From assembly GCA_902777005.1 (NCBI GenBank), contig CACYSB010000003.1, positions 10,614 through 74,613 on the forward strand: a DNA stretch of 64,000 nt. The letters are read 5' to 3'. Positions within the stretch are counted from its first letter, which is position 1. Each line of letters opens with the position of its first letter. The position numbers and the translations under genes were made by a program. The stretch comes from an uncultured Bacteroidota bacterium (GTDB lineage: Bacteria > Bacteroidota > Bacteroidia > Bacteroidales > P3). Of the stretch, positions 1,133 to 20,368 are shown piece by piece. Below the pieces are notes generated by a model. It saw only the letters and a program-made list of their open reading frames with translations. It did no database searches and was not told the origin of the DNA.

Positions 1133-1215
1133 GCCCTGGTGGTGGAATGGTAGACACGGTAGACTCAAAATCTGCTGCTCGCAAGGGCGTGAGGGTTCAA
1201 GTCCCTCCCGGGGTA
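1133..1215 (+). tRNA. tRNA-Leu (anticodon CAA), class II with long variable arm
   Basis: GCCCTGG acceptor pairs with CCGGGGT. D-arm is GGTGGAATGGTAGACAC. The anticodon loop is CTCAAAA. The variable arm is long (TGCTGCTCGCAAGGGCGTG). T-arm is GAGGGTTCAAGTCCCTC. Very similar to E. coli tRNA-Leu architecture. Confidence 0.9.
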
Positions 1216-1220
1216 CAAAA
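1202..1220 (+). repeat. attL core: 19-bp direct repeat TCCCTCCCGGGGTACAAAA (3' end of tRNA-Leu)
   Basis: Identical 19-mer recurs at 20350-20368. Confidence 0.85.
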
Positions 1221-1221
1221 C

Positions 1222-1248
1222 GGCGGTCGCAAGGCCGCCTTTCTTTTT
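1222..1248 (+). terminator. intrinsic terminator after tRNA-Leu (element-borne)
   Basis: GGCGGTC/GGCCGCC stem with GCAA loop, followed by TTTCTTTTT. Confidence 0.65.
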
Positions 1249-1341
1249 GCCATAAATTACACATTTTAAGCATATTATAAGCATAACTGACGCATTATCA
1301 ATAGTCACGTTATTACCCATTTTTACCCGTTATTTACACCC

Positions 1342-1377
1342 TTTTCCTCAAAATGTTTTCCAAATGTTTTCCACGGA
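1342..1377 (+). repeat. subterminal repeat block (putative integrase arm-type sites, ATGTTTTCCA words)
   Basis: TTTTCCTCAAAATGTTTTCCA recurs perfectly at 1476-1496. CTCAAAATGTTTTCCAAATGTTTTCCACGG matches 20285-20313 at about 27 of 30 positions. Confidence 0.6.
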
Positions 1378-1475
1378 AAACAATTACCAAAAACAACATT
1401 ATGCATTTGGATAACATTGAGTAACAACGAGTAATGAACATTTCAAATACCACCAGATTGTTTCATATTGAATCA

Positions 1476-1496
1476 TTTTCCTCAAAATGTTTTCCA
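1476..1496 (+). repeat. second copy of the 21-bp TTTTCCTCAAAATGTTTTCCA repeat
   Basis: Perfect 21-bp direct repeat of 1342-1362. Confidence 0.7.
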
Positions 1497-1512
1497 TATC
1501 GTTTATTTTTCG

Positions 1513-1520
1513 TAATTTTG
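1513..1520 (+). promoter_or_regulatory. -7 promoter box (TAATTTTG) for integrase
   Basis: TAnnTTTG match 30 nt upstream of the ATG at 1550. Confidence 0.45.
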
Positions 1521-1549
1521 CAACCCTGAAAGACATAAAATAGATAATT

Positions 1550-2722
1550 ATGGCAAAGAGTAAAAGTATCCTGATCAGCGGTAATCCTTTTGTGCAGATT
1601 CGCGACACAAAAGAGGGTGACAAGTATACTATGCGCCTTGTGTACAATCTTGGCGACATATATGAAATGGATGCCGATGGCAATAGGAAACGTCACCAGC
1701 AATGGAAATATGAGAAGCTGAACTTGTGGCTTTGGAACAAGAAACACCTCTCCCCTGCCGAAAGCGAGCATAACCGCGTGGCAAAGGAAGCCGCAAAACT
1801 TGTTCGCGAAGAGCGTGAACGACAATTCTTAAGCAAAACCCAGGGATACACTTTTGCCGTTGACCGCAACAAGATAAACCTCTACGACTGGATGGAGGAT
1901 TACATCAAAGAGTATGTCAAAGCCGATGAAAGGGTAATTAGACTCTCCACAAAACGTTTCCGCGCGTTCATTGATAGTAATAAGAGATACGCCATCTTCT
2001 CAAAATGCATACATCCCGACCAGCTCACGCCAGAAATGGTAGAAGCTTTCGTCGACAAATTGGAAGCCGACTGTCGGGGTGAAGGGGCGAAAACACTCTA
2101 CAAGCGATTTAAGAAGATTATCACCGCAGCCACAAAGCAGGGAATATTCCTCGACAATCCGTGCGATGGTATATCCGCGAAAGTGGAAGATGAAGGAAGA
2201 TTGAAAAAGGATGTGCTGACAGCCGATGAAATCACACGGCTCATCCAATGCAAATTCGACCGTCAGAGCGACGATGTACGACGAGCATTCCTATTGTCGC
2301 TTTTCACAGGATTGCGATACTGTGACGTGAAAGAGCTTCGCTATCGCAACATCAACTACGAGGAATGCACCCTCACATTCCAACAACAGAAGACCAAACG
2401 TACCAACACTGTACCTCTGAGGCATGACCTCATCGCCCTGATAGGTCGCGGAGAACCCGACCAGCTTCTTTTCCACGTAGGCAGCCCTACCGCCTGCAAC
2501 AAGGCATTGCAACATTGGGTCGAACGTGCTGGCATCAACAAGCATATCACATGGCATTGCGCCAGACATTCATTCGGGGCACTCACCTACTATAATCTCA
2601 AAGACCTCCGCGCCACCAGCGAGCTCCTCGGGCACGCCGACACCAAAGTCACCCAAATCTACACCAAGGTATTCGACGACCGTAAGAGAGAACTGGTCGA
2701 TAGTCTTCCTGCCATTGAATAG
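1550..2722 (+). CDS. tyrosine site-specific integrase
   Basis: C-terminal catalytic region WHCARHSFG...LLGHADTKVTQIYTKV (R, H-x-x-R, H, Y). Lies next to tRNA/attL. Confidence 0.9.
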   Translation: MAKSKSILISGNPFVQIRDTKEGDKYTMRLVYNLGDIYEMDADGNRKRHQQWKYEKLNLWLWNKKHLSPAESEHNRVAKEAAKLVREERERQFLSKTQGYTFAVDRNKINLYDWMEDYIKEYVKADERVIRLSTKRFRAFIDSNKRYAIFSKCIHPDQLTPEMVEAFVDKLEADCRGEGAKTLYKRFKKIITAATKQGIFLDNPCDGISAKVEDEGRLKKDVLTADEITRLIQCKFDRQSDDVRRAFLLSLFTGLRYCDVKELRYRNINYEECTLTFQQQKTKRTNTVPLRHDLIALIGRGEPDQLLFHVGSPTACNKALQHWVERAGINKHITWHCARHSFGALTYYNLKDLRATSELLGHADTKVTQIYTKVFDDRKRELVDSLPAIE

Positions 2723-2895
2723 CCTCCCATTTTCTGTAAAAATGCTCTACAAACAGTCTTTTTGCAGAAAAAAGAGAGGCTGTTCCCTATGTAAAAATTA
2801 GTTAAAAAAAGCGTTTTTTTTGACGTTTTTCGCACTTTGTTTTGGATGAAAAATAATCATCCAATCTGCATCTATTTGTTTTCCAAATTAATGTG

Positions 2896-2903
2896 TACTT
2901 TTG
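2896..2903 (+). promoter_or_regulatory. -7 promoter box (TACTTTTG) for the xis-like gene
   Basis: The GTGTGTACTTTTGC context is nearly identical to the tRNA promoter context at 1091-1104. Confidence 0.45.
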
Positions 2904-2957
2904 CCGCCGACTTAACATCAATAGGCAACAATAATCAACAACCAAAAATAACACATT

Positions 2958-3188
2958 ATGGAAGACATTATGACCTTTTCGGCAGCGTGTGAGTTTCTAG
3001 GCATCACCTCAAGACAGATGTACGGTTACACTGGGCGAAAACTCATCCCTTACTACAAACCGACCGGACGGCACATCTATTTCCGCAAATCCGAGCTTGT
3101 AGAGTTCGTGACCGCCAACCGCATTGCCACCGCAGCCGAGGTGGAAGCACAAGCACAGCAACTGGCACGTAAACCCGCTGCGGTATAA
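2958..3188 (+). CDS. excisionase-type (MerR/HTH_17-like) DNA-binding protein
   Basis: A 76-aa protein with FSAACEFLGITSRQMYGYTGRKLIPYYKPTGRHIYFRKSELVEF, typical of Bacteroidales mobile-element Xis/HTH proteins. Lies next to the integrase. Confidence 0.65.
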   Translation: MEDIMTFSAACEFLGITSRQMYGYTGRKLIPYYKPTGRHIYFRKSELVEFVTANRIATAAEVEAQAQQLARKPAAV

Positions 3189-3230
3189 TCGTCCTGTGGC
3201 ACTCATTCCGCACATCATATCGGTAGACGG

Positions 3231-3273
3231 TACCCAAAAGGTGTGTACCCAAAGTACCCAAAAAGTGTGTACC
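3231..3273 (+). repeat. iteron-like direct repeats upstream of rep
   Basis: TACCCAAAAGGTGTGTACC (3231-3249) and TACCCAAAAAGTGTGTACC (3255-3273) have a 24-bp period and one mismatch. An extra GTACCCAAAG lies between them. Confidence 0.6.
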
Positions 3274-3347
3274 TTTCAGTCATACCATCACCTATCGTCA
3301 ATTATAATGTACACGCGCGAACGTATGCACCCAATAATAATGTCAAA

Positions 3348-4352
3348 ATGATAGACACGCTAAATATGATGATTGGGAGCAAATTGATGAGCGGAATGAG
3401 TCCGTTGTCGATTGATAAATATATCTCGATGGATAAAACGGGAATATATGTGCGAAAAGGGACTCCGTATATAGTTGGTCACATAAACAACTACCGAGTG
3501 TATGCCGACGACAATGGAATCCGCCTCTCCGGCAGCATCGCCAAGTTGAGCAAGGGAGAAAATGTGTCCACCCCAACACATAAGGACATCGACAATGGCC
3601 TCCAGTTACTGTCAGACACATTACATCTCGACGTTGGTATGGCCTCGGTTCTAAGAATCGACATTGCTTGTACCTTTGGAATGAGCAACCCCGTTGCCAA
3701 CTACTTAAACTTATTGACATCCATACCAGGATATGAACGCGCATCCGTTGGAGACAATTCCCTCTACTTTTATTCTCCAAATCGCAAACTGTACTTTTAC
3801 GACAAGCGAGCCGAATTGTATAGCCGTGGGGAACGTATTCCTCGCACATGGTTGAACATACCCAATCTGTTGCGTTATGAGATGAGATTCAACTGGACGG
3901 TGGGGAAGCAAATTGTTCAAGACACACTCAAAGTCTCCTGCCTCCGAGAGCGCCAGCCGATGGCGCGGCTGGCGAAGTTGTGGGCGCAGGGGTATCAGCA
4001 TATCGCGAAAAAGCAGGACAATCCATTCTTGAAGGTGATGACTCCTAAAGATGCCATAAATGTAATGCTTATTGACCTGTTGCGGAATGCGCCCGACAAT
4101 TATCTTGACAATGTGGATGAAATACTAAAGCAATCAGGCAATCTCGACAAAAAGCGACGATACCGGATGCGACAACAAATTGAGGGGAAGATGAGATTAT
4201 ACAATAATCCTTTAATAAACGAACTTGATGCTGAGATAGAATCGGCAAAAGCAAGTAGTTACCAGTCCAAACGCGCACGCGCGCGAGGAAAGAAACACCA
4301 AAACACAATATACAACCATGCCAAACAAGCCATACAAAAAACCGACCCTTGA
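3348..4352 (+). CDS. putative rolling-circle replication initiator (phage/plasmid gene II/X or Rep_trans-like)
   Basis: N-terminus MIDTLNMMIG resembles the MID-x-L starts of gene II/X Reps. LRIDIACTF and LYFYSPNRKLYFYDKRAELY are Rep_trans-like blocks. Start chosen at the internal ATG at 3348 because 3243-3347 overlaps the iterons. Confidence 0.45.
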   Translation: MIDTLNMMIGSKLMSGMSPLSIDKYISMDKTGIYVRKGTPYIVGHINNYRVYADDNGIRLSGSIAKLSKGENVSTPTHKDIDNGLQLLSDTLHLDVGMASVLRIDIACTFGMSNPVANYLNLLTSIPGYERASVGDNSLYFYSPNRKLYFYDKRAELYSRGERIPRTWLNIPNLLRYEMRFNWTVGKQIVQDTLKVSCLRERQPMARLAKLWAQGYQHIAKKQDNPFLKVMTPKDAINVMLIDLLRNAPDNYLDNVDEILKQSGNLDKKRRYRMRQQIEGKMRLYNNPLINELDAEIESAKASSYQSKRARARGKKHQNTIYNHAKQAIQKTDP

Positions 4353-4725
4353 GCAGTTGGAAACTGTTCTTAAAGTCACAGGTGGCATCCTTTCAAGGAC
4401 TGCCGAGATACTGGGATGCTGCCGCCTCACCCTCCGCCGTTGGATACGAAGTGACCCTGAATTTGCCGATGCTATTTACGATGCTCGGATGCGCTCCTTT
4501 GACAGTTGCCTTTCCTCGGCACAACTTTTAGCATTTGGCGTTCCAATCACGGAAAACGGTCAACTGAAGGGATGGAAGATTAGACCCGATGTACCAATGC
4601 TGATATTCCTCATGAAGAAGTTAGGCCGCGAAGAAGGTTTCGATCCCGACAATCCCATAAAACCAAAGAACCGTCAGCAAACAGATATGGAGCGATGGAT
4701 TGAGCAGGAGATGAACAGAAAGTAA
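4318..4725 (+). CDS. small HTH protein resembling a phage terminase small subunit
   Basis: TLEQLETVLKVTGGILSRTAEILGCCRLTLRRWIRSDPEFADAIYDAR followed by RPDVPMLIFLMKKLGRE. The pattern is recalled from TerS-type proteins and no HMM was run. Confidence 0.35.
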   Translation: MPNKPYKKPTLEQLETVLKVTGGILSRTAEILGCCRLTLRRWIRSDPEFADAIYDARMRSFDSCLSSAQLLAFGVPITENGQLKGWKIRPDVPMLIFLMKKLGREEGFDPDNPIKPKNRQQTDMERWIEQEMNRK

Positions 4726-4787
4726 TGGCTGAAATGTGATACAACACAACAGAACTGACTAAAAAATAGGTAGATAAACATCCCTAG

Positions 4788-4812
4788 AATTGTGGGTATA
4801 CAAACCACAATT
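4788..4812. terminator. hairpin between convergent genes
   Basis: AATTGTGG / CCACAATT 8-bp stem with a 9-nt loop. Confidence 0.4.
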
Positions 4813-4982
4813 AAATAAGCGGTAATGACAAAAAAATTTATTTCCATAGCCTTTCGGGGGAAACATTTGAACTATCACGCATGGCCGTCCCTCTTCACAT
4901 AAAAAAAGTTATTCGCTGGATTGTCATGATTTATAAGGTGTTCATTGTCTCCGGCATATGAAAAACCATTATCTCAATAGGG

Positions 4983-7900
4983 CTACATCAGGCTATTAAT
5001 CTCGTCGAGCATATTCTGGTAGCTGGTGACTTCGTGGTAGCGGACTTTATTGGTGGAGATGTTGTTGAAGAGCTTCTTGGCGCACTCAATCTTGGCCTTC
5101 TCGGCACCTTTCAGCTGCATGGAGTCCATGCTGCCTTTGGTCTCGGCAATGAAGAAGACATGCTTCACTCCAGCATTGTCGTTGAAGGCGATGGCCCAGT
5201 CAGGGGCATAGTTGCCCACAGGTGTCGGTATCTGGAACGACCGCGGCAGCTTGGCATAAACACACACTTCCTCGGCTTTGTCCAGCTCTTCGGCAAAGGT
5301 ACGCTCGCCTTGGCTGTCGGCAAACACATAGTCGAGAATGTGTTTCTTGGCCTCGTAGGCTTTGTCGATGGTCTGCCGGCTCTTCTCCTGAGTGAAGATG
5401 GCAGAGTCATATTGGTTTTCTGTGCGGTTGTAGCTGATATGTTCCACAATCATCGTGGCTTTCTGTTCACGGATGATATGGCTCACCTTGCGGATGAACT
5501 CTTCGGGGTTGTTCTTGAACATATACAGTTTCGACAGCTGTATCCCCTTGAGTATTCGTACTACCGTCCGACGGGTCAACGTGGCGGCTTTGGCGATGTC
5601 GCCCACCAGGTCGTAGGGTACGTTGCTGGTCGACACTTCACGCAGTTCCCTTGTTCGTGTACTCTGCTCTCCTGTAAAGTCCAATTCATCTTCGCCTTGT
5701 GTTCCTGTGGTGACCACATATTTCAGCTGTGTGACATTCAGGTCTCTGTCGATGGCACCAACGGACTTTTGAATCAACTCTTCGCTGTCATAGTGTACCG
5801 TATAGACATAGCGATGGTTGATTTCATTCCATAGGGCCTTGAACTCCTTCTTCTCGGCATTGTCGTTCAAGTGGTCGTTCACCACCTCGGCCTTGTCGTT
5901 GGCATCTTCCACCATATCCACCAAGGCGGTGGGGTCGAAGATGCTTTGTATCATCTTGTGTACCTGTTCCTCGATGGGTTGTAGTTTCTTGCTCATGGGG
6001 GCAAGTGTGCCATTCTCCAAGTCGGTATGGTAACCCTGCCGTATGTTGCCCTTCTCGTCGATATAGTCGTTGTCGAACAGATAGCTGACAATGCTGGCAG
6101 CTTCCTGTTCCGAGATGGTGTGCAACCCGCCATCCACCTTGAGGGTAATGTCCTTAAAGTAGTCCACAGTGGCCTGTGTCGGTCGCTCGCGAAGGGTTTC
6201 TTTGGTCTCTTTCTGTAGTGCGTCGACAAATGAGCTGTAGTTTTCGTTGGCGATGACGGTCAGTTTGTTGGTATCGTGTACGGCATCACCTAGACGTTCT
6301 TTGTCCATACGGTTGCCCTCTTTATCCACGCAGATACGTAGGCCGCGCCCTACCTCTTGCCGTTTGGTTGTGGCACTGTTGGCATGACGCAATGTGCATA
6401 TCTGGAACACATTGGGATTGTCCCAGCCTTCTCGCAGGGCGGAGTGGGAGAAGATAAAGCGTGTCGGTTCGTCGAAGCTCAACAGGCGCTCTTTGTTTTT
6501 CAATATCAGGTCGTAGGCCGAGATGTCGTCCGAGGTGTCTTTGCCCCGTTTCACTTCACTATTGACCGAGTGGCCTTTCTTGTCTATGGAGAAGTAGCCG
6601 TTGTGTACTTCGGTGGCTGGGAAACGCCGCAGATAATCCTGATAGTCGTCCTCAAACAGCGTCAAGTTCTCGTTCAGATAGCGGTTATATTCATCTTCGA
6701 ACATCTGCCACAGTGGTCCCTTCACCTCGTTCCCTTCACTGTCGTAACTTTTGTAGTTGGCAACCTCGTCGACAAAGAACAGCGACAGGGTCTTAATGCC
6801 CTGCTTGAACAGGGCTCGCTCTTTCTCGAAGTGCGACTTGACGGTCTCACGGATTTGTATCTGCTGTATGGCTTTCTCGCTCACGTCGCCCATCACCTCA
6901 CCCTGGTGAAGTGACTGACCATTCTGGAAGTGGATGGTGTTGGTGCGAGGATTGATTTCAGTTATGACGAACTCCTTGTAGGCTGGAAGCCCTGAAGCAT
7001 CGTAAAGTGAATCGTTCTGTCTAAACTTGCAGGTCTGACGGCGTGGACTTGCTGCGCCTTTCACTTCAATCTCTAGCCGCACCTCGGGGGCTTTGTTCTT
7101 CGAGAGGATGATGCTGTCGAAGTAGATATAGCTTTGGTTGCCCAGCAGGTTTTGTACGGTGATACCTTTCACCTGTATCTTCTTCACCAGGCGCTGCCTG
7201 TAGGCATCGTATGCATCGAGGGCATAGATGCAGTTGTGCGAGGTCTTGTGGGTGGCCGAGTAGTTGAGCACGAAGAGCGGCTTGAAGTTGCGCAAGGCTT
7301 TCTGGGTGGCTTCGCCTTCCATCTTCTGCGGCTCGTCCATTATGATGATGGGGCGGTTGGCGGCAATCACGTCGATAGGGCGACGGCTCTGAAAGTCGTC
7401 ACGTTTGGAGTAGATGATGCGCGCCTCTTTGTTCTTGGCATCTTCCTTGAACGAGGTATTGAAGGCCTGCACGTTGATGATCATCACGTTGATGCTGGCA
7501 TCGCTGCTGAACGAGTCTATCTGCGTGAGGTTGTTGCTGTTATAGATAAAATAGCGGGCTTTCTTGCCATACTGCTCCATGAAGTGTTCGTCGAGCATCG
7601 TGAAACTCTTATATACACCTTCACGGATAGCGATACTGGGCACCACCACGATGAATTTCGACCAACCATAACGCTTGTTCAATTCAAACATGGTCTTGAT
7701 ATAGACGTATGTCTTACCGGTACCGGTCTCCATCTCGATGTCGAGTGAGCAGGCTCCCAGCCCGACAGGCTGACTCAGCGTCGGCGACAAAGGTATGTCG
7801 CCAGTCACCTGTTGCTGGTGGATATTGTCTAATAGTTGCTGTCCCGTCAGCTCCACGTCGCTGTTGCGCCAGCCGACTTCCTCCTCATACACCTCGCCAC

Positions 7901-8054
7901 TGTCAACGTCAAAGGCCTTTACCTGCTTGCCTTTCCGACGGCCTAAGTCACGACGGTACTGTGCGTTGGCCTTCGACGGCTGCCCGGCAAACACATCCAC
8001 CGTGCTTTCCACCGCATCGGTCTGGTATTGCTGTATCTTGAATTTGAACTTCAT
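4983..8054 (-). CDS. res: Type III restriction endonuclease Res subunit (SF2 helicase plus PD-(D/E)xK nuclease)
   Basis: Starts MKFKFKIQQYQTDAV. Motif I is ETGTGKTYVY, motif II is IIMDEPQKM. The C-terminal nuclease is APDWAIAF...FFIAETKGS. Start taken at the second Met (8054), 8 nt after the upstream stop. Confidence 0.85.
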   Translation of the reverse strand: MKFKFKIQQYQTDAVESTVDVFAGQPSKANAQYRRDLGRRKGKQVKAFDVDSGEVYEEEVGWRNSDVELTGQQLLDNIHQQQVTGDIPLSPTLSQPVGLGACSLDIEMETGTGKTYVYIKTMFELNKRYGWSKFIVVVPSIAIREGVYKSFTMLDEHFMEQYGKKARYFIYNSNNLTQIDSFSSDASINVMIINVQAFNTSFKEDAKNKEARIIYSKRDDFQSRRPIDVIAANRPIIIMDEPQKMEGEATQKALRNFKPLFVLNYSATHKTSHNCIYALDAYDAYRQRLVKKIQVKGITVQNLLGNQSYIYFDSIILSKNKAPEVRLEIEVKGAASPRRQTCKFRQNDSLYDASGLPAYKEFVITEINPRTNTIHFQNGQSLHQGEVMGDVSEKAIQQIQIRETVKSHFEKERALFKQGIKTLSLFFVDEVANYKSYDSEGNEVKGPLWQMFEDEYNRYLNENLTLFEDDYQDYLRRFPATEVHNGYFSIDKKGHSVNSEVKRGKDTSDDISAYDLILKNKERLLSFDEPTRFIFSHSALREGWDNPNVFQICTLRHANSATTKRQEVGRGLRICVDKEGNRMDKERLGDAVHDTNKLTVIANENYSSFVDALQKETKETLRERPTQATVDYFKDITLKVDGGLHTISEQEAASIVSYLFDNDYIDEKGNIRQGYHTDLENGTLAPMSKKLQPIEEQVHKMIQSIFDPTALVDMVEDANDKAEVVNDHLNDNAEKKEFKALWNEINHRYVYTVHYDSEELIQKSVGAIDRDLNVTQLKYVVTTGTQGEDELDFTGEQSTRTRELREVSTSNVPYDLVGDIAKAATLTRRTVVRILKGIQLSKLYMFKNNPEEFIRKVSHIIREQKATMIVEHISYNRTENQYDSAIFTQEKSRQTIDKAYEAKKHILDYVFADSQGERTFAEELDKAEEVCVYAKLPRSFQIPTPVGNYAPDWAIAFNDNAGVKHVFFIAETKGSMDSMQLKGAEKAKIECAKKLFNNISTNKVRYHEVTSYQNMLDEINSLM

Positions 8055-8062
8055 CACATACA

Positions 8063-9862
8063 CTATTCTGATATAATCACCCAATGACCACCTCTTTTGG
8101 CAGGCCCCTCTCTCTTTATCTGATTATTAAACTTAAGTTTGTTTATATGATTTTGTATGGCGGTAGTTGATATACCTATTCTTGAAGAGAGTTCTTTTTT
8201 GGTTATATAGGGGTTTTCTTGTATGAGTGACAGTATCGTTGATATTGTTAATTCAGAATCGTTTGGCCCATTAGACAACCCATTAGGCAACCCATTAGAC
8301 AACCCATTAGACAACCCATTAGACAACCCATTAGACAACCCATTAGACAACTCTTGGTGATTGAACTCAGTATTAATCTTGTATGTCGTCCCCCTTCCTT
8401 TGCCAGTAGGAATTAACAACTCTATACCCGTCAAGTATTTTAGTGTCTTTGCCACTTCCAGGGAGTTCTTTTCCATAAGTGTCTGAAGTCGCTGATTGGT
8501 CACCTCTTTCTCCACATAAGCCACCGATAGAGCCGATAGCGCATCACTGTCTAACTTGTTATATCCGTCGCCTAAAAAGTTATGCAAAAAAACCTCAACC
8601 TCTTTAGGGTACATGGAAATCATCCATAGTTTCAATTGGACTTCTTTCAGTTCGGTCACCTCATCCAAGTCGGGTTTTCGCCATTTCTCCGTTTTACAGG
8701 CATTGAGAATGGTAGGGAAACCTGAACCGAGGTTCTCACCATAACCAATCATCCGTAGCATATTCTGTATCCGAGGGTTCCTCGCCTTCGAACTTCCGCC
8801 TTCATAAATTTGAGCAACCGGAAGTTTCAAAGTTCCAGGGTTTCTAAAGCAGAAACATCCATCGTGTTTTTCGATTCTCAATATGCCACCAGATATGAAG
8901 AAATCAGCGTGAATGATACTGTTGGTAAAGGACTCGCGGATGGCTTTGTGTGCAGGTGTGTCATCGTCTCTTTGCATCCCTTCCAATCGGAATGGGCGTT
9001 TTAGGTCACTGGATAGCTTTACCAATACACGGCGGAAGAAATTATACAGGTTGTTTTCCCATGTTCCATCATAAGTCAACCGATCGCTATAACGCATATC
9101 ACCTTGCAAATCGGTCATATCTATATAGTCCATCCTGAAGTTTGAGAAACGCTCCCTTACAGATAGGCCTTTGCCAAACATCAGAAGTCCAGCGAGTGTC
9201 AGTCCCTCTTTTCCGGTGGCACGGTCTATTGTATAACCTCCGAGTTGTTTTAGAAATTCTTTGTCGTCCAGCTGATTGTACACATGCCCGATATTCCTGT
9301 TTTCAAACTCGTTCCTGTAACTCTTCAAGGTAGGCATGTCGATGTCATCCATCGTATAGTAGTCTATAAGATTCCCGTCGTTCCCGTCTTCATTGGCATC
9401 ACGTATCATGGCCTTGACTTCGCTCTCATCGCAATGATAGTCGCCCTCATGATTGCGCTTGAAAGTCCCCTTATACACATTGCCGTTGATATAGACAGGC
9501 TTATTACGATATATGGCTTGGGGTATATGGGCAACAAGCAACACAGTTGTATCATCATACTCTACAACTTGCACATCTTCATCTTTCAACAAATTGGAAC
9601 TTACCTTCTCGCTATTAATGGTATTCCAGAAGTCCTTCCGTTGGCGTTCCGCATGGTTGATGCCATAAATAGTGAAACGTTCGTCGAAAGTTTCAGCATT
9701 CAGATTCTCTTCGATACCTAGTATAATATAGCCCCCATTGGTGTTGGCAAATGCGGAATATGTTTCCCAGATAGACTTAGGGATACTATTTTCGGACCTT
9801 TTGCACTCCAACGTAATGCGTTCTCCGTAATTTAATAGTTCGTCTATAAATGTCTTGTCCAT
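8063..9862 (-). CDS. AlbA_2 (Schlafen-like divergent AAA) / HATPase_c_4 / C-terminal wHTH protein
   Basis: ECKRSENSIPKSIWETYSAFANTNGGYIILGIEE is AlbA_2-type. FTNSIIHADF is HATPase_c_4-type. The C-terminal wHTH is ITKKELSSRIGISTTAIQNHINKL. Confidence 0.7.
   Translation of the reverse strand: MDKTFIDELLNYGERITLECKRSENSIPKSIWETYSAFANTNGGYIILGIEENLNAETFDERFTIYGINHAERQRKDFWNTINSEKVSSNLLKDEDVQVVEYDDTTVLLVAHIPQAIYRNKPVYINGNVYKGTFKRNHEGDYHCDESEVKAMIRDANEDGNDGNLIDYYTMDDIDMPTLKSYRNEFENRNIGHVYNQLDDKEFLKQLGGYTIDRATGKEGLTLAGLLMFGKGLSVRERFSNFRMDYIDMTDLQGDMRYSDRLTYDGTWENNLYNFFRRVLVKLSSDLKRPFRLEGMQRDDDTPAHKAIRESFTNSIIHADFFISGGILRIEKHDGCFCFRNPGTLKLPVAQIYEGGSSKARNPRIQNMLRMIGYGENLGSGFPTILNACKTEKWRKPDLDEVTELKEVQLKLWMISMYPKEVEVFLHNFLGDGYNKLDSDALSALSVAYVEKEVTNQRLQTLMEKNSLEVAKTLKYLTGIELLIPTGKGRGTTYKINTEFNHQELSNGLSNGLSNGLSNGLSNGLPNGLSNGPNDSELTISTILSLIQENPYITKKELSSRIGISTTAIQNHINKLKFNNQIKREGPAKRGGHWVIISE
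8267..8350 (-). repeat. 7 tandem copies of a 12-bp unit (CCCATTAGACAA on +) encoding (LSNG)x7 linker
   Basis: Read directly. One copy has G for A (8279-8290). The array is in frame and lies between the HATPase_c_4 and wHTH domains. Confidence 0.95.
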
Positions 9863-9864
9863 AA

Positions 9865-10002: not shown

Positions 10003-10088
10003 AACCAAATTATTCTTTCTCAACTTGTTTTTCTATACAAACAACAGTCTCGGTCTTGTATTGTTATATTTTGAATTTATCCCATGCT

Positions 10089-10124: not shown

Positions 10125-10173
10125 CGCCCGATTATTAAGACTAATTATTCTCATTTTCAAACCTTTAAATGCA

Positions 10174-11126: not shown

Positions 11127-11129
11127 AAC

Positions 11130-13127: not shown

Positions 13128-13135
13128 AAGACAAC

Positions 13136-13414: not shown

Positions 13415-13415
13415 A

Positions 13416-14016
13416 TTATATTTGTGCTTTTAATTTTACAAGTTCTTGGTGCAATTCATATTTCTTGTGCGTTTGTTTCTCCAACCGGCATTTCTTTTCG
13501 AGGACTTCAATCTGTCGGAGCAGCTTCTCTTTCTGTTCACGGTTGATTATCTGCTGTTCGATGGTTTCTTCCGAAGAGGCATCAAGGCTTCCAATGCTTG
13601 CCACAATGTTGTTCCATACATCATCGAGATTCAAACCTTGAAGATGAATAGCAGTTTCTTCCGTAGGCATCCAAGCCGACTGTTGCAGCCGGGTGTGGAA
13701 GATACAAAGTTGCGTTTTGTCTTCATGCTGCAAGGCAAATACGATATTCTGGGGTATCAACTTATGGAGCAAGAGAATGTTCTTTGGGTCATACTCCTTG
13801 CGCTTCAACACGACCTGCAAGACATATATGCCTTTTATTTCGTTTCCATCCGTCAGCGCTGGTACAGTCGCCGGAGAGATGCGAGCCACAAGAACCATCC
13901 TGCTAATGTCAGCATCGAACCGTTCACGCTCCGACGCCTTGAGATTGAATTTCTCAAAGACGGCCTTTTTCGATAGCGGCTGACTGATGGCGGTGGCAAC
14001 GGGTAGTCCAAACATA
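13416..14016 (-). CDS. DUF4391-like protein
   Basis: MFGLPVATAISQPLSKKAVFEKFNLKASERERFDADISRM... is recalled as the DUF4391 type that accompanies helicase/MTase/Res cassettes. Start at ATG 14016, since the track start is TTG. Confidence 0.5.
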
Positions 14017-14020
14017 GGTA

Positions 14021-17000
14021 TCACTTGATTACAAGGAAACAAATAAGTTCGAAGTCGTCCAAGCCCGAAATATGCTCTTTGAACAACTCACCCTGCACAC
14101 CATCAAGGAAACTGTCAATGTCCGATTTCTCCTTGACGTTGATAATTGAGTTAATGGCTTTGCTGAGCAAGTCAGAATACTTATCCATGCGTAGGCCGTC
14201 GCGGGTCTCTTTGTTGAAGGTGCTGCAGAGTTTTATGTCTGGCTGATCCATGGGCTTGCAGAGCAGTCGCATCTTGTCGAGGAGGTCCTTGGGGTGCAGG
14301 TGATCAACCATCACCTCGCCATCATCTTGGATGTAGACCATATAGAACGGGTGCAGCTGGTTCTTGTGGTCGATATTGACACCGGCGGTTCTGTTTTTCA
14401 GCACGAAGACTGTGCCCGCAGGCGCCTGCTCGTTGCCACGCACCACAGCATGAAGACCAAAGGGGGTATGTTCAATATCGTGGTTGCCCTGCATATATTC
14501 CAAGAGATCCAACCGGAACTCATTCAGGCCAAGGTCCATGATGCTGACACCTGTATTCATCTCTTCAAGGTCGACGACATCCTCTTTCAGACGTTCCAAC
14601 TGCCGACGGCGGTATTCGAGGTCGTCCTTCTCCTCGGGCGAGAGGAGATTGTCGTCGCCGGTGGCAGTCATCACGGTCACTTTCATGCGGGCTTCGACAC
14701 GACCTTTGAGGTTGATATACTCGTCGAGCGTCATATCGGGCCAATAGTTGACCAGCTGTATTTTTGTATTCTTGGAGCCTATACGGTCGATACGGCCGAA
14801 ACGCTGGATGATACGCACGGGATTCCAATGGATGTCGTAGTTGATAAGGAAGTCGCAGTCCTGCAGATTCTGACCCTCGCTGATGCAGTCGGTGGCGATT
14901 AGCACGTCAATCTCCTCGTGCAGATGAGGATAGACAGCGTCACGCTCCTTGGACACAGGAGAAAACAAGGTAAGCACCTTGTTGAAGTCAAGCCTTTCGC
15001 GTAGTTTCATAGTACTTCTGGCCTCCACGTCGCCGGTGACAAGAGCCACATTCAAGCCATACTTGGATTTGATGGCATCAGCCAGGTTTTTATACAGATA
15101 TTCTGCCGTGTCGGAGAAGGCCGTAAATACAAGTACCTTCTTGTTGCCATTGTTTATGGGAGTGACGAACTTAGACTGGAGATCCGCCACAAGCTGTTGC
15201 AACTTACTGTCATGCTCGGGGGTGATAGGCTCAAGTTGGGAGAGAAGGTTGTGGATGATATTGAGGTCAGCCTTAATTTCCTCCTGCCACGAGAGATAAT
15301 CCATATCCTCCAGCCGAATACGGTTCTTCTTCTTACCGATGGTGAAGTCCTGCTCGTCCTCGTCGGCATCCACACCCTCGTAGTCATCGACAGACACCAG
15401 CACGTCGCCCTGTCTGAATCTGGCTATTGTATCAAGGGTTTCCTGCATATAGTCGCGGATGCGGCCCAGGGTGAGTCGGAAGGAGTTGACAGAAGACTCC
15501 AATCGTTTCAGCAACTGCATATTCATCAGTCGCTGGATGCCGCGTTCGCGCTCCTCGATACTCAAGCGGTGGCCCGATGAGCCTTCTTCCTCCGTGTATT
15601 TCCACAGCTGGCTGGGTTGGATGAAGGCAGAAGGAGCATAGATAGCAAGATGAAGCAACTGCAATTGTTCGAATATCTCGTTGTAGTTGATGGCTGTATC
15701 GAGGTCGGTCAGATGAGGTTGACGTGAGATAGGTTTCAGTCGTTCGGGGAAAGTGCCGATGTCAGAAGTGTCGTAATATTGTTGGATGTGCTTGCGGCTG
15801 CGGGCGATGGTGACGGCATCGAGCAGACGGAAGAAATCGAAGTCAAGCATACGGAGCAGTCGCTCGGTGGTGCGTTCCTGCGGAGGCAGATTAGCCCACA
15901 TGTTATAAGCCCCTTGGGCTTGACGGAAGATGTCGTCGATGCCTTTATTGGTAGGCAACAACTGGTCGAAGGCTTTGGATTCCCCTTCGTAGGCCAGCTG
16001 CAGTTGGTTCTTGAGGTCGTTGAAGCGGTTGTTTACGGGTGTGGCCGAGAGCATCAGCACCTTTGTCTTCACACCAGAGCGGATGACCTTGTTCATCAAT
16101 CGTAGGTAGCGGTTGTCACGTGGATTCTCGCCATCCTCGTCGGTCGACACCTTGCCGCCGTTGCGGAAGTTGTGACTCTCGTCGATTACTACCAGGTCGT
16201 AGTTGCCCCAGTTGACACGCTCCAAGTCAAGGTCGTTGCTCTGCCCATGGTCACGGCTGAGGTCAGTATGATATAGCACATCGTAGTTCAGACGGTCTTT
16301 GGCCAAGGGGTTGTTGGTGTAATTCTGGCGGTAGGTGTTCCAGTTCTCATATAGTTTCTTAGGACATAGCACCAAAATGGTGCGGTTGCGGCTCTCGTAG
16401 TATTTGATGACAGAAAGGGCCGTAAACGTCTTACCGAGCCCCACGGAGTCGGCAAGGATGCAACCGTTGTACTTCTCCAGCTTGTTGATGATGGCCAAGG
16501 CGGCATCACGCTGGAAGTTGTAGAGTTTGTTCCAGATAATGGAGTTCTTGAATCCAGTAGCCTCATTGGGCAGCTCGTCCTCGCTGATGTCTTCTAGAAA
16601 CTCGTTGAAGATATTGTATAGAGCTACAAAGTAAAGGAACTCTGGAGCGTTCTCTTTATAGGCGTTTCCGATGCTATCGATGACTTCGTCAGTCACTACC
16701 TGCATACGGGATGAATCATTCCAAAGCTGGTTGAAGAGGTCGATATAAGCCTTCGAGAATGGAGCTTCGGACTTTTGAATCATAGTATAGGCATGATTCC
16801 CTTTCTCGCAGCCGAGGTCGACGGTTGTGAATCCGTCAAGCGGGGAATAACTATTGTCATCGAGCGTAATAAACCCCATCATCTGTTCGTTGGTACGATT
16901 GGATTTAAAACAGACCTTCTGACGAATCCACTCGGCACACTCGCGGGCAATAGCCTTTTGGGTTAGTTCATTACGGAGCTTCACCTCAAACTCAGAGCCA

Positions 17001-17320
17001 TATAAGGTACGTTCCCTGTCCAGACGAGGAATATAGAATTCCCGCTGTTGTTTGGGTGTTTTTTCGGTGGTGAAGGTTGGCGAGGTAAAGATGAAGCGCA
17101 GCTCCTTGATATCCTTTAGCGCCTCTTTCAACTCCTGATAGGCATAGATGGAGAAACAGGAGGCTGCTATCGAAAGACGACTATCCGGCTTGATTTGTTG
17201 CATCAAGTCGTCACGTAGGGTCTTGTTTATGTTGTTAATCAGCTCCATCGTGCGAAATGCGCCTTGAGGTTTGTGCTCCAAAGCCTCCAACGGAGCGGTT
17301 TTACCCAATAAGAAAGGCAT
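14021..17320 (-). CDS. SNF2-family helicase with N-terminal PLD-like (degenerate) domain
   Basis: Motif I is LADSVGLGKTFTAL, motif II LVVIDESHNFRN, motif III LMLSATPVNN, motif VI QRFGRIDRIGS. The N-terminus SIAASCFSIYAYQELKEALKDIKELRFIF is typical of this helicase class. An alternative start is at 17248. Confidence 0.85.
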   Translation of the reverse strand: MPFLLGKTAPLEALEHKPQGAFRTMELINNINKTLRDDLMQQIKPDSRLSIAASCFSIYAYQELKEALKDIKELRFIFTSPTFTTEKTPKQQREFYIPRLDRERTLYGSEFEVKLRNELTQKAIARECAEWIRQKVCFKSNRTNEQMMGFITLDDNSYSPLDGFTTVDLGCEKGNHAYTMIQKSEAPFSKAYIDLFNQLWNDSSRMQVVTDEVIDSIGNAYKENAPEFLYFVALYNIFNEFLEDISEDELPNEATGFKNSIIWNKLYNFQRDAALAIINKLEKYNGCILADSVGLGKTFTALSVIKYYESRNRTILVLCPKKLYENWNTYRQNYTNNPLAKDRLNYDVLYHTDLSRDHGQSNDLDLERVNWGNYDLVVIDESHNFRNGGKVSTDEDGENPRDNRYLRLMNKVIRSGVKTKVLMLSATPVNNRFNDLKNQLQLAYEGESKAFDQLLPTNKGIDDIFRQAQGAYNMWANLPPQERTTERLLRMLDFDFFRLLDAVTIARSRKHIQQYYDTSDIGTFPERLKPISRQPHLTDLDTAINYNEIFEQLQLLHLAIYAPSAFIQPSQLWKYTEEEGSSGHRLSIEERERGIQRLMNMQLLKRLESSVNSFRLTLGRIRDYMQETLDTIARFRQGDVLVSVDDYEGVDADEDEQDFTIGKKKNRIRLEDMDYLSWQEEIKADLNIIHNLLSQLEPITPEHDSKLQQLVADLQSKFVTPINNGNKKVLVFTAFSDTAEYLYKNLADAIKSKYGLNVALVTGDVEARSTMKLRERLDFNKVLTLFSPVSKERDAVYPHLHEEIDVLIATDCISEGQNLQDCDFLINYDIHWNPVRIIQRFGRIDRIGSKNTKIQLVNYWPDMTLDEYINLKGRVEARMKVTVMTATGDDNLLSPEEKDDLEYRRRQLERLKEDVVDLEEMNTGVSIMDLGLNEFRLDLLEYMQGNHDIEHTPFGLHAVVRGNEQAPAGTVFVLKNRTAGVNIDHKNQLHPFYMVYIQDDGEVMVDHLHPKDLLDKMRLLCKPMDQPDIKLCSTFNKETRDGLRMDKYSDLLSKAINSIINVKEKSDIDSFLDGVQGELFKEHISGLDDFELICFLVIK

Positions 17321-17565
17321 GAGACTTATGTGCTCATGTCCGTCTACTTGTGGGTTTCGGCTACCTCTGAAGGAACGGAATAAAAACCATCAGGCTTTTT
17401 CCATGGAACAAATTTCACGCCTGAAGGTATGCTGATGAGAATAGCATACACAACAAGCGAAAGCAAAATGCTCCGTCCTCCTTCATGAAATTTGCCGAAT
17501 TTACAAGTAGGGACAGTTATTAGCAATGCTTTTCTTGCAAAGCTTACAACGCGCGTAAGCAGTTG

Positions 17566-17573
17566 CAAAAGTA
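17566..17573 (-). promoter_or_regulatory. -7 promoter box (TACTTTTG) for the helicase/RM operon
   Basis: Reverse complement of caaaagta. It implies a leader of about 240 nt before the helicase ATG. Confidence 0.4.
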
Positions 17574-17704
17574 CGAAGATTTTCTGGAATAGCCAAATTT
17601 ATTTATTCGCGTGTGCGTGATAATGCATAGTATTTATACGCGAACAGGTGTTTTTTCAAAAGAAGAAACCACACCAAAAAACTCACAGAAAACCATTAGT
17701 AACA

Positions 17705-18375
17705 TTACACATTTTGACATACAACATGTGATGCTGGCAGATGTCGATTGTCGTATCCGTCTACATTATAGAATAAGGGTGTTGCCTTGTTTTTGCCGTA
17801 GATGGGCTTGTTGAACATATGGGCGTTTTGTAGGACATACTTGATGCCGTCGACACCGCAGCCCCAAGGCGAGGCGACATCGCCATAAGTAACTTCTTTT
17901 ATATCCACATAGCCGATGATGGCACCAGTTGGCCATTGCTCATAAGGTGGTAGTATGCCTTTGGCTATATATCCATTCACCACGTCCAGCAACTGGCCAT
18001 CGAGCACTTCATCCAGTCGTTTGGCATCGCGGGTCTTGCTGGCGGCGATAAGGAACCGCTTGCAAGGTGGCACCAGTTTATCACGGCACTCTATATCTTT
18101 TATACCTGCAGCAATCAGCGTTGCCCACGGCTGACGTATGGCGAGACATTTCATCTGGCGGCTGCGGTTTGGTGCTTTATTCTTTTTTGCAATACGATGG
18201 GTGATACCAGACGCACGTTTTGTATTACGTTCCGCTGCGGTATGGTTCAGTTCTCTATACAGCAGATTATTCACGTCAGCCTTTGTGAGTCCGAGGGAGA
18301 GCAGATGCATAGTCTTCGCCTCAAACCCCATGTCGGCAAGAGCGATGTGCTGCACCTGTTCTCTGAAACTGTCCA
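17705..18375 (-). CDS. ASCH (PUA-like) domain protein
   Basis: MKCLAIRQPWATLIAAGIKDIECRD is an ASCH signature. Start at ATG 18375, 22 nt downstream of a minus-strand TATCTTTG box (18397-18404). The track start is TTG. Confidence 0.7.
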
Positions 18376-18528
18376 TAGCATTAGCTGTATCTCTTTGCAA
18401 AGATACAACTTTTTAATAAAACTGAGAGTAAAAAAGTGATGTTTTTTGATAAAACCGAGACGAATAAATGCATAAATAATCAGCGAGTGATTATTTATGC
18501 TTATATTTGACAAAAAATGTTATAACTC

Positions 18529-19803
18529 TCAATCCTTCAAACATCCAATTGGCACCACATAAATTCCATCCTCACGACGATAGGCGAACTTGCCGACAGC
18601 AGTAAGTATCATTCTGAATGCAGGAGCCTTCATCTTAGTGGTGTCAATCTTGCCTGTCAAGTCATTTAACGCTCGTACGCCATCTTCTATCAATTCCTCA
18701 CCTCCAAGTTTAATCTCTATCAGGCCATATGAGCCGTTGCGCAAATGTACTACAGTGTCGCACTCCAAACCATTCTTGTCTCGATAATGGTATACTTGTC
18801 CATCAATAGAATCCGCAAATACCCTTAAATCGCGTACGCACAATGTTTCAAATAACAGGCCAAACGTATTCAGGTCGTTCATAAGGTCGTTTGGCCCCAG
18901 TCCGAGAGCAGCTGTTGCAATGGAAGGGTCTGTAAAATAACGATTGTCTGATGTCCGTATTGCTGTCTTTGAGCGCAAGTTGGGATTCCATGCCGCCATA
19001 TCCTCGATGACAAATATTTTTTTTAGTGCTGCCACATAAGAATATACAGTCTTGTCGTCCACGCTGTCCACATCATTCGCCCTAATGTCAGCTGCAATAG
19101 TGCTTATAGGAATCTGTGATCCTTGATTGCGAGCATACGATTGCATAATACGGCGTGTACGTTCCGAATCTCTTTTCACACCATCCACACGAGAAATATC
19201 TCTTTTTATCACAGCATCAAAATAATCAAATGCCCTTCCCAAAGCGACATCTTTTTTTTGCAGGGTTGCTCTTGGCCATCCTCCTCGACAGGTCAAATAT
19301 GCGATGTCTTCCAGATTCAGTGTATTTTCCGCAAACAGTTGCTCGGGAGCATTGAATAGTTCTCTCATGCTCACACTCCCATTCGATTCTCCCGATTCCC
19401 ACAAGCTCATCGTTCTCATTGTAAGCCATGAAACACGTCCGGTACCCGTGTGCCTCAATTCTTTATCATCTACAGGAACCGCCGACCCTGTCAGAATAAA
19501 CTGTCCATCATCATCTCTATGGTCAACTTCATATCTAACAGCATCCCATAGAATAGGAACGGACTGCCATTCATCAATAAGTCTAGGTGTCTCCCCAGTA
19601 AGAACTCCTTTGGGGTTCAATATGGCTAGTTGATGCCAGTTTGTTCCTTCCTCAGGATCGTCCATATACACCACACTTTTAGCCTGCTGCTCAGCAGTCG
19701 TGGTCTTTCCGCACCATTTTGGTCCCTCTATGAGGACGGCTCCTGTACCTTCTAGCTTCTTTTCCAGAAGTTTATCGGCAATTCTTTGTTTGTACTTCTT
19801 CAT
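18529..19803 (-). CDS. AAA+ ATPase (AAA_14 plus DUF4143 type)
   Basis: Walker A is LIEGPKWCGKTTTA. The architecture is common in Bacteroidales. A minus-strand TACTTTTG box lies at 19826-19833. Confidence 0.8.
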   Translation of the reverse strand: MKKYKQRIADKLLEKKLEGTGAVLIEGPKWCGKTTTAEQQAKSVVYMDDPEEGTNWHQLAILNPKGVLTGETPRLIDEWQSVPILWDAVRYEVDHRDDDGQFILTGSAVPVDDKELRHTGTGRVSWLTMRTMSLWESGESNGSVSMRELFNAPEQLFAENTLNLEDIAYLTCRGGWPRATLQKKDVALGRAFDYFDAVIKRDISRVDGVKRDSERTRRIMQSYARNQGSQIPISTIAADIRANDVDSVDDKTVYSYVAALKKIFVIEDMAAWNPNLRSKTAIRTSDNRYFTDPSIATAALGLGPNDLMNDLNTFGLLFETLCVRDLRVFADSIDGQVYHYRDKNGLECDTVVHLRNGSYGLIEIKLGGEELIEDGVRALNDLTGKIDTTKMKAPAFRMILTAVGKFAYRREDGIYVVPIGCLKD

Positions 19804-19873
19804 TTAGCATCATATTTTCACGCTGCAAAAGTACAAAATAAATTTCATATAGATAGAATTTTATAAAAATTTG

Positions 19874-19940
19874 TTTCCAAAGTTGGCTGAATTTCATTTC
19901 CAAAGTTGGCCGAATTTTATTTCCAAAGTTGGCCAAATTT
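19874..19940 (+). repeat. three direct repeats, 23-bp period (TTTCCAAAGTTGGCYRAATTT)
   Basis: Copies at 19874-19894, 19897-19917 and 19920-19940. Each contains the CCAA-ag-TTGG half-palindrome. Confidence 0.9.
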
Positions 19941-20004
19941 TAATGCCATTTAGACATTTCCTTATTCGAAGATATGGAATTCACCCCAACATGAAGTTGC
20001 GTGT

Positions 20005-20150
20005 CGTTCGTTTGTCGCTTGTTTGTCGTTTGTTTGCCAGATTGCTTGTCGCTTAATCTCCAGTATTCTGCGCAAAACATTCGTTTCCATTTATTTGGAA
20101 ATGCCATTTGTTTGCCGTTTTGTTTGTCGTTTTTCTGTTGGTTGGCGCAT
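20005..20150 (+). repeat. two clusters of degenerate TTGTTTGYCG words flanking a TTCCA-n7-TGGAA palindrome
   Basis: Read directly. The segment is strongly T/G-skewed and non-coding. Confidence 0.6.
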
Positions 20151-20207
20151 TGCCTATGTTTTAGAAGAGTTTTTCCCCTTTCTTGCCTATGAATTAGAAA
20201 AAAGTTG

Positions 20208-20215
20208 TATCTTTG
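20208..20215 (+). promoter_or_regulatory. outward-facing -7 promoter box (TATCTTTG) at the island's right end
   Basis: TAnnTTTG match. Transcription would cross attR and stop at the 20372-20407 terminator. Confidence 0.4.
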
Positions 20216-20284
20216 CAAACGAAACGGTCGAAGATTGGGGTGTGTGGTATGCAAAAAAGGGACGTAATATTGTGCGTTAGTGAC

Positions 20285-20313
20285 TCAAATTGTTTTCCAT
20301 ATGTTTTCCACGA
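20285..20313 (+). repeat. right-end copy of the subterminal repeat (CTCAAATTGTTTTCCATATGTTTTCCACG)
   Basis: About 27 of 30 positions identical to 1348-1377, in the same orientation. Confidence 0.6.
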
Positions 20314-20349
20314 GGCACATAACAATATGATTATCAGTATACATACGAT

Positions 20350-20368
20350 TCCCTCCCGGGGTACAAAA
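20350..20368 (+). repeat. attR core: 19-bp direct repeat
   Basis: Identical to 1202-1220. Confidence 0.85.

Follow-up and report, generated by a model that had tools for sequence, protein, structure and literature searches.

A 19-kb mobile island of rumen Bacteroidales with a satellite-like four-gene core and exchangeable defence cargo

The 64,000-nucleotide stretch analysed here (the window; positions 10,614 to 74,613 of contig CACYSB010000003.1, assembly GCA_902777005.1) comes from an uncultured Bacteroidota bacterium and carries a rumen Bacteroidales island of 19.1 kb, integrated at the 3' end of a tRNA-Leu(CAA) gene. The island is a site-specific integrative mobile element that joins a minimal conserved core to exchangeable defence cargo and is spreading recently and horizontally. 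The core is 3.5 kb long and contains four genes, all on the + strand, which encode a tyrosine integrase (Int), a helix-turn-helix (HTH) protein of the HTH_17 type, a replication initiator (Rep) and a protein resembling the small subunit of phage terminases (TerS). The initial annotation of the window had described a core of this kind (integrase, regulator, rep with origin, TerS-like gene) with defence cargo downstream, and the arrangement proves to be real and conserved as a unit.

The integration target, tRNA-Leu(CAA), is located at 1133-1216 on the + strand (ARAGORN; Rfam tRNA, 52.6 bits). A perfect 19-bp direct repeat, TCCCTCCCGGGGTACAAAA, had been proposed at the tRNA-Leu 3' end and at 20350-20368, and it is exact: the attL core (1202-1220) forms the tRNA 3' end, the attR core (20350-20368) is an identical copy, and the window holds exactly two copies with none extra at up to 2 mismatches, where shuffled sequences give an expectation of 0. 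The tRNA-Leu 3' end is restored by island sequence. Immediately after attL, an island-borne intrinsic terminator (1222-1249, + strand; hairpin 1222-1239 with a 7-bp stem of which 6 pairs are GC and a GCAA loop, followed by a T-run) stands in for the tRNA gene's own terminator. The original chromosomal terminator (20374-20408, + strand; hairpin 20374-20391 plus T-run) is found after attR, now 19 kb away from its gene. As initially annotated, the island is AT-richer than its surroundings, with 45.1% GC against 52.5% in the flank to its left and 55.0% in that to its right. A repeat of the tRNA 3' end, an adjoining tyrosine integrase and deviant composition are thus all present, as in tRNA-integrated genomic islands.

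Both ends of the island also contain repeats of the arm type. Those near attL extend over 1342-1504 (repeat families D1 and I9-I11), and the 9-mer TGTTTTCCA occurs in 8 copies in the 64 kb (0.64 expected), six of the eight inside the island. It forms tandem pairs with 11-nt spacing beside attL (1354, 1365) and beside attR (20291, 20302; span 20291-20310), with single copies at 1488 and at 2877, the latter upstream of the HTH gene, and an inverted copy at 1375-1385; such a placement would be expected for arm-type recombinase sites. The right arm (19804-20349) is non-coding and comprises three tandem 23-bp repeats, TTTGTCG-type repeats and the TGTTTTCCA pair. The 23-bp repeats (TTTCCAAAGTTGGCYRAATTT-type) lie at 19867-19948, just upstream of the start of the last cargo gene (PDC-S01), and clusters of short TTTGTCG-like repeats at 19996-20144; operator, pac site or origin are candidate roles for these right-arm repeats. 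From the repeat cores, the attP junction of the excised circle is predicted to be CAGTATACATACGAT-TCCCTCCCGGGGTACAAAA-CGGCGGTCGCAAGGCCGCC, and the empty attB junction GAGGGTTCAAG-TCCCTCCCGGGGTACAAAA-AGAGAGCCTGTTTTTCAACAGG.

Relatives of Rep are rare, forming 31 clusters in 5.8 billion proteins. Rep loci are found in 6 cases among 185,579 species genomes, all of them metagenome-assembled genomes of uncultured rumen or ruminant-gut Bacteroidales, and at 20 metagenome loci. The islands of loci L001-L008, L018, L019 and L029 occupy the same tRNA-Leu site and possess the same four-gene core, and the island is present in all contigs with an identical downstream oxidoreductase. Compared with the related loci, the chromosomal left flank (1-1132) is 80-87% identical, the tRNA 99-100%, the island core (1221-4200) 98.5%, a patch containing the 3' end of rep and the 5' part of the terS-like gene (4201-4600) 80%, and the segment 4601-4730 89-95%. 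The jump from 80-87% to 98.5% identity falls at attL. Low dN/dS values are found for int (0.10-0.27), rep (0.11-0.18) and the terS-like gene (0.10 at dS 0.45-0.58). In a more distant relative, L068 (Rep 71% and TerS-like protein 64% identical), the order int, HTH_17, dyad repeats, rep, terS-like is retained.

Homology to the sister islands ends at 4714-4731 (blastn), about 5-10 bases from the stop codon of the terS-like gene, at a cargo junction occupying 4726-4982. Four cargo variants follow the terS-like gene: type III restriction-modification (R-M) with accessory genes in the window and L017; a BREX-like system (BrxL, BrxC/PglY and PAPS reductase) in L001-L007; SecB-like and HEPN genes in L018; and HNH_3 and XRE genes in L029 and L019. 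Because the core is 98.5% identical where the flank is 80-87% identical, because dN/dS is low and because the cargo changes at one junction, the core is, judged from these comparisons, a unit under selection whose recent moves were between hosts of roughly species-level divergence, with exchange of its cargo. No attR was found within 13 kb of the island core of L018, even with 3 mismatches allowed. In the same locus, ARAGORN reports a tRNA-Val(TAC) at 14917-15004 (- strand) inside the open reading frame (ORF) of a BspA-type leucine-rich repeat protein, probably a false call or a fragment. Relaxase, type IV secretion system (T4SS), capsid, portal, tail and large terminase subunit (TerL) genes are encountered neither in the island nor in about 40 related loci (10-kb neighbourhoods); relaxase or T4SS genes in homologous islands, which the initial annotation had regarded as the sign of an integrative mobilizable element (IME), were therefore found in no relative.

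The integrase (390 aa; 1550-2722, + strand) stands just inside attL, as first described, and matches Phage_integrase (5e-18), Phage_int_SAM_5 (2.5e-8) and phrog_1 (1e-43). Next on the same strand is the HTH_17 protein (76 aa; 2958-3188, +), whose earlier description as Xis-type is upheld by matches to HTH_17 (PF12728, 1.2e-10) and phrog_66 (4e-4), with a score against the TIGR01764 excisionase domain (26.2 bits) just below the 28.8-bit cut-off. Both proteins exceed their Pfam cut-offs. The HTH_17 protein is a candidate excisionase or AlpA-type activator.

Rep (334 aa; 3348-4352, + strand) is counted from a conserved ATG at 3348, the mechanical ORF (3243-4352) having a GTG start; 30 Rep homologues begin at MIDTLN, which corresponds to this ATG. 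Among these 30 homologues the Y, K, A and E of FYDKRAE and the L, R, Y, E and R of LLRYExR are invariant. The ORF matches Phage_CRI (PF05144) at 4.4e-10, above the gathering score, and the AlphaFold (AF2) model of the protein (pLDDT 82) finds its best PDB folds in RepDE (4cwc) and RepSTK1 (4cij) with E of 3e-6 to 2e-5 (Foldseek). Identity to the solved Rep structures is only 13%, and a search of the Rep profile against the sequences of solved structures in PDB gave no match. The model opens with beta-strands at residue 2, places MIDTLN inside the core fold and contains no N-terminal HTH domain. The gene II/X-like Rep of the initial annotation is thus supported by family and by fold, and the protein is, from its profile match and its predicted structure, a rolling-circle initiator of the Rep_trans/Phage_CRI fold.

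Upstream of rep are two tandem 20-nt units of 95% identity (3230-3249 and 3254-3273, within 3229-3273; repeat family D4), and each of them is an internally symmetric dyad (GGTAC..GTACC). The pair may serve as the binding site of Rep or as a double-strand origin. Both units are retained in L068, and relatives integrated at tRNA-Val (Rep 44% identical) have another, stronger dyad, GGTAACGCAAAACNCGTTACC, in duplicate at that position, which argues that the feature is real. Dyads that change along with the Rep lineage are how a cognate origin or operator would look. Of the iterons earlier placed before rep, the repeats themselves and their conserved position stand, but they amount to merely two dyad units.

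The fourth core protein (135 aa; 4318-4725, + strand) is modelled as an N-terminal HTH (residues 11-45) and a long helix (47-73) followed by a beta-hairpin and a helix. Its direct hidden Markov model (HMM) matches are weak (HTH_8 4e-4, HTH_17 6e-3). A profile of 7 sequences, used in a full HMMER scan, recovered 528 representative relatives. Among 105 aligned relatives, 72 match phrog_4044 (terS; best 9e-13), 49 match phrog_309, 38 match phrog_2538 and nine match Pfam Sf6_terminase. Fold matches in BFVD are mostly annotated as 'Terminase small subunit', cover nearly the full length and reach E 6.5e-6; matches of the profile to solved structures are marginal (2ao9 7e-3, Sf6 gp1 0.09). Two IMG/VR contigs, L024 and L025, encode homologues of 40-44% identity, aligned over residues 1-108 or 1-120 and positioned directly upstream of a Terminase_3 TerL, with an SPP1-type portal next in L025. 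Since transitive profile matches, fold and gene position in phage contigs agree, the 135-aa protein is, by homology and modelling, a genuine but distant TerS homologue, and the resemblance reported in the initial annotation is borne out.

Some further observations concern this gene. The 400-nt patch at 4201-4600, which spans the 3' end of rep and the first two thirds of the terS-like gene, has the same 80% identity to all sister islands, and through an indel in it the window's Rep alone has a C-terminal extension, which overlaps the start of the terS-like gene; it looks like a recombination patch that may have swapped in another terS allele. A 38%-identical TerS homologue occurs in MT839454.1 (L069), a record of 4.3 kb from human faeces ('Bacteriophage sp.') that also contains PAPS reductase and ASCH genes; this record was considered as a packaged satellite and rejected, as it looks like a phage fragment. 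PAPS-reductase-domain genes are found in the phage contigs L069 and L024, and ASCH also in L069, these contigs having the closest TerS homologues. The same domains recur in the island family, ASCH at 17705-18400 of the window and PAPS_reduct in L001, within its BREX-like cargo.

The cargo genes (4983-19803) are all located on the - strand, in keeping with the earlier view of this segment as opposite-strand defence cargo; most of them, not all, match defence models. The type III R-M pair consists of the methyltransferase Mod (665 aa; 11130-13127; PADLOC MTase_III 8e-195, N6_N4_Mtase 3e-25) and the restriction endonuclease Res (1033 aa; 4983-8084; PADLOC REase_III 7e-293, ResIII and RE_endonuc domains), the latter matching NF012027 at 1e-113, below the curated cut-off. 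Both components of a type III system are therefore present, and the pair is of predicted activity. Upstream of mod, at 13136-17320, are a 92-aa ORF, a DUF4391 protein (13416-14042; DUF4391 2e-34) and an SNF2-family helicase (14021-17320; SNF2-rel_dom, Helicase_C, PADLOC C3a139 'HKD+Snf2' 7e-126). These are followed by a 74-aa ORF and an ASCH-domain protein of 231 aa (17344-18400, the latter at 17705-18400; ASCH 5e-5, phrog_3193 8e-23) and, finally, by an AAA_14/DUF4143 ATPase (18529-19803; DUF4143 1e-33, AAA_14 6e-13), a PADLOC candidate of type PDC-S01 (1.5e-63).

Between mod and res lies an insertion of about 3 kb with two genes. One encodes a 599-aa protein with Schlafen/AlbA_2, HATPase_c_4 and winged-HTH domains (8063-9862; Pfam; phrog_12156 6e-62), and the other is AbiJ-like (PDC-S32; 10174-11126; AbiJ_NTD4 1e-10). 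The AbiJ-like gene is split into two ORFs, 10476-11126 and 10174-10419, with positions 2-211 and 235-299 of the 301-position PDC-S32 profile on separate ORFs, and is probably a pseudogene. The two inserted genes have 42% (Schlafen/AlbA_2) and 35% (AbiJ-like) GC against 51.5% in res, the AbiJ-like gene being the most AT-rich of the island; judged by position and composition, they are a nested insertion inside the defence operon. As GC varies between 35% and 51.5% from gene to gene, the cargo is itself mosaic. In scans with HMM libraries, no island protein matches capsid, tail, portal, TerL, relaxase or T4SS families, in agreement with the initial statement that capsid, tail, relaxase and T4SS genes are absent.

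The core belongs to a wider family of small elements. A sister lineage with Rep 43-46% identical is integrated at the 3' end of tRNA-Val(CAC) as complete elements of 5.6-7 kb, flanked by repeats of 15-25 bp. Its loci L011, L014, L015, L020 and L021 contain int, an ORF of about 210 aa, an HTH_17 gene, an HTH_39-like ORF, rep and three small ORFs. They have no cargo, and PHROG scans of their small ORFs gave no informative match; in L015, HipBA and other genes are located just outside attR. A second type of small integrase-bearing element from rumen Bacteroidales (L049-L052, L056 and L057) possesses a TerS-like protein 61-68% identical to that of the window. In L051, L056 and L057 the replication gene is DnaD-like or DUF7833 instead of Rep, and in L052 AbiEi/AbiEii, RhuM, Fic, DUF1016 and Dcm methylase genes are found downstream of the terS-like gene. 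The terS-like gene is thus kept beside two unrelated replication modules. Plasmid records yield one weak Rep match, in a Parabacteroides distasonis record (NZ_OY725790.1, L067). Its 52-60 kb region encodes an integrase, a 399-aa product, an HTH protein, a Rep-like protein of 26% identity (profile E 2e-23) and eight small hypothetical proteins, in a 278-kb 'plasmid' that carries housekeeping-type genes; it is a possible tractable distant relative from a cultured species.

How the island moves was weighed among several mechanisms. A helper-phage-dependent lifestyle, as in phage-inducible chromosomal islands (PICIs), is the best supported and is ranked first, at about an even chance of being correct, because of the terminase-type gene, the PICI-like layout and the precedent of the minimalist phage-inducible chromosomal islands known as PICMIs. 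In such a cycle, Int together with the HTH_17 protein would excise the island, and Rep would amplify the excised form by nicking at the dyad repeats for rolling-circle replication. The island's TerS would then recruit the helper's Terminase_3-type TerL and so direct island DNA into the capsids of a tailed helper phage. The cargo would protect the host, and hence the island, against other phages. Redirection of helper packaging by an element's own TerS is the route by which pac-type PICIs and the SaPIs spread. In a guide to 'hitchers', terminase genes are taken to indicate mobilisation by phages and relaxases to indicate conjugation (PMC11389934).

Several results weigh against dependence on a helper phage. 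In the databases searched, no excision junction, empty site or virome copy was found: the attP junction, for which the initial annotation had proposed a search of induced-culture or virome reads, is absent from IMG/VR; the exact 38-nt tRNA plus right-flank pattern of an empty attB is absent from JGI metagenomes; and contigs with 90-92% identical homologues of the flanking genes show no synteny to the island locus. Relatives of Rep, sought with the single sequence and with an alignment, occur in none of 2.9 million IMG/VR contigs and 50,697 phage records. The direct match of the 135-aa protein to phrog_4044 is non-significant (2e-3), as is the top hit of its PDB fold search, the TerS-like nonamer 2ao9 (E 0.2). 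The tRNA-Val elements contain no TerS-like gene by tblastn and profile search, and the wider family can thus do without TerS. The island has no capsid-size, packaging-interference or repressor gene, no helper was found, and its 19 kb is about twice the median PICI size. Of the suggestion that this is a Bacteroidales phage satellite, the satellite-like layout stands, recent horizontal mobility is added to it, and a phage satellite is the most probable reading.

Some of these results would fit a rolling-circle plasmid that integrates, or a defence island, lacking any dedicated apparatus for intercellular transfer; the 135-aa protein would then be an HTH transcription factor of phage origin. Int and Xis would move the element, Rep would maintain the circle, and spread would occur by generalized transduction, vesicles or transformation. 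The family matches obtained directly with the 135-aa protein are to HTH models only, the tRNA-Val sisters manage without it, and no evidence of a helper, a pac site or a virome copy was obtained. This explanation is nevertheless unlikely: homology to proteins in the TerS position of phages runs well past the HTH and takes in the long helix, the hairpin and the following helix, the gene is maintained in elements that replicate by different means, and a near-identical core in different species implies efficient transfer.

Conjugation is a rather improbable alternative. The island would then be an IME whose Rep nicks the dyads as an oriT, with a co-resident conjugative transposon supplying the coupling protein and pore, and the TerS-like protein would be merely a DNA-binding accessory or regulator. 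NBU-type elements of Bacteroides likewise target the tRNA-Leu 3' end, the Rep fold is confirmed, and the island clearly crosses species and has no virome copy. Proteins related to Rep_trans are, moreover, the MOBT relaxases of integrative and conjugative elements (ICEs) and IMEs in Firmicutes (PMC11389934). But MOBT is defined by an N-terminal HTH fused to Rep_trans (PMC11389934), which this Rep lacks, and has been reported for Firmicutes, not Bacteroidota. No Mob, type IV coupling protein or Tra gene is found in any related locus, and conjugation leaves a TerS homologue under purifying selection unexplained.

A decayed tailed or filamentous prophage, stripped of its structural genes and fixed as a defence island, is very improbable. 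In its favour are a Rep of the Phage_CRI family, to which gene II of filamentous phages belongs, the presence of a terS-like gene and of a phage-type integrase, and the lack of a nearby attR in L018. Against it, the compact core is intact and evolves under purifying selection, and its identity reaches 98.5% between hosts whose flanks are 80-87% identical. Both att sites, with their arm-type motifs, are intact, and no relative contains remnants of Zot, coat, capsid, portal or tail genes, the 5.6-7 kb sisters being complete and having the same gene order. An inovirus prophage was rejected, as Rep is present alone with no Zot/pI or coat genes, and a decayed tailed prophage likewise, as the core is intact, selected and recently transferred.

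The helper-dependent lifestyle also accords with the resemblance of the island to known satellites. As in PICIs (the SaPIs and the int-alpA type of Gram-negative bacteria; PMC10085698), int stands at one end of a one-strand module with an AlpA/Xis-type regulator, a replication gene with repeats and terS; accessory genes follow terS, the att repeats are short, and tail, holin, portal and TerL genes are absent. Under the SatelliteFinder definition (PMC10085698), the integrase, a putative regulation module, a putative small terminase subunit and the absence of forbidden phage genes agree with a PICI. PF12728 is among the AlpA profiles of the SatelliteFinder model for PICMIs (PMC10803314). The core contains no primase or helicase domain, for which the rolling-circle Rep is a functional analogue. 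The TerS-like protein is the sole match to head or packaging families, and no capsid morphogenesis gene is present, as is the case in 'Type B' PICIs (PMC10085698). Because it has a rolling-circle initiator rather than a primase-replicase, the island is not a PICI by the published definition; the PICI layout claimed for it holds for int, regulator, TerS-like gene and accessory cargo but not for the replication module. It further differs from PICIs in having no capsid-morphogenesis or packaging-interference gene, an unusually large cargo (15 kb) and a host in the Bacteroidota; more than 99.9% of the PICIs detected with SatelliteFinder are in Proteobacteria or Firmicutes (PMC10085698).

PICMIs of Vibrionaceae (PMC10803314) resemble the island in their very small core (int, an alpA-type HTH gene and one replication gene) and in a single distal hotspot that swaps defence systems, R-M among others, and the tRNA-Val sisters are of PICMI size. 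They differ in possessing a DUF3987/DUF5906 primase, in having no terS and in integrating next to fis (PMC10803314), whereas the island has a rolling-circle Rep, a TerS homologue and a tRNA target. From the PICMIs it is clear that three core genes and a distal defence hotspot suffice for a satellite (PMC10803314). With the MOBT IMEs and ICEs of Firmicutes the island shares a nicking protein of Rep_trans fold, here recognised through the related catalytic domain in the 4cwc and 4cij matches (Foldseek, E 3e-6 to 2e-5), in an integrative element with no transfer apparatus of its own. The fused N-terminal HTH that defines MOBT (PMC11389934) is absent, and no association with a coupling protein or T4SS is seen within 10-kb neighbourhoods, a helper elsewhere in the genome being possible. 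MOBT elements also belong to a different phylum, and the island, unlike them, has a TerS homologue.

NBU1-type elements share with the island a Bacteroidales host, a tyrosine integrase and the tRNA-Leu 3'-end target. NBU elements possess a primase and a Mob relaxase with its oriT, none of which is found in the island. The pT181/pSTK1-type plasmids and the gene II or TLC 'Cri' proteins of filamentous phages have the same initiator fold or family, with a conserved Tyr-containing motif; compared with the plasmids, rep is here part of an integrated island. The element is best classed as a Bacteroidales hitcher that resembles PICIs and PICMIs and has an initiator of Rep_trans fold.

Nearly all known satellites come from Proteobacteria, Firmicutes and a small number of other groups, although Bacteroidota dominate gut and rumen communities, and no described Bacteroidota satellite was found in the literature searched. 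It is tentatively suggested, with somewhat less than even confidence, that the island represents the first recognisable family of phage satellites in Bacteroidota, in which an int/AlpA-like/Rep/TerS chassis would rely on rumen tailed phages of the Terminase_3 type and shuttle defence systems between species. One hotspot downstream of terS would then carry type III R-M, BREX-like or toxin-antitoxin systems, and the TerS module might pass from one chassis to another whose replication gene is unrelated, possibly switching helpers. If the island is a true satellite, a 3.5-kb chassis with a defined cargo junction would account for the movement of large defence systems between species of Bacteroidales, and a rolling-circle initiator of Rep_trans fold would be added to the ways in which satellites are known to replicate. 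Should it be something else, a recently spreading vehicle of defence genes has been demonstrated in the Bacteroidales of the rumen.

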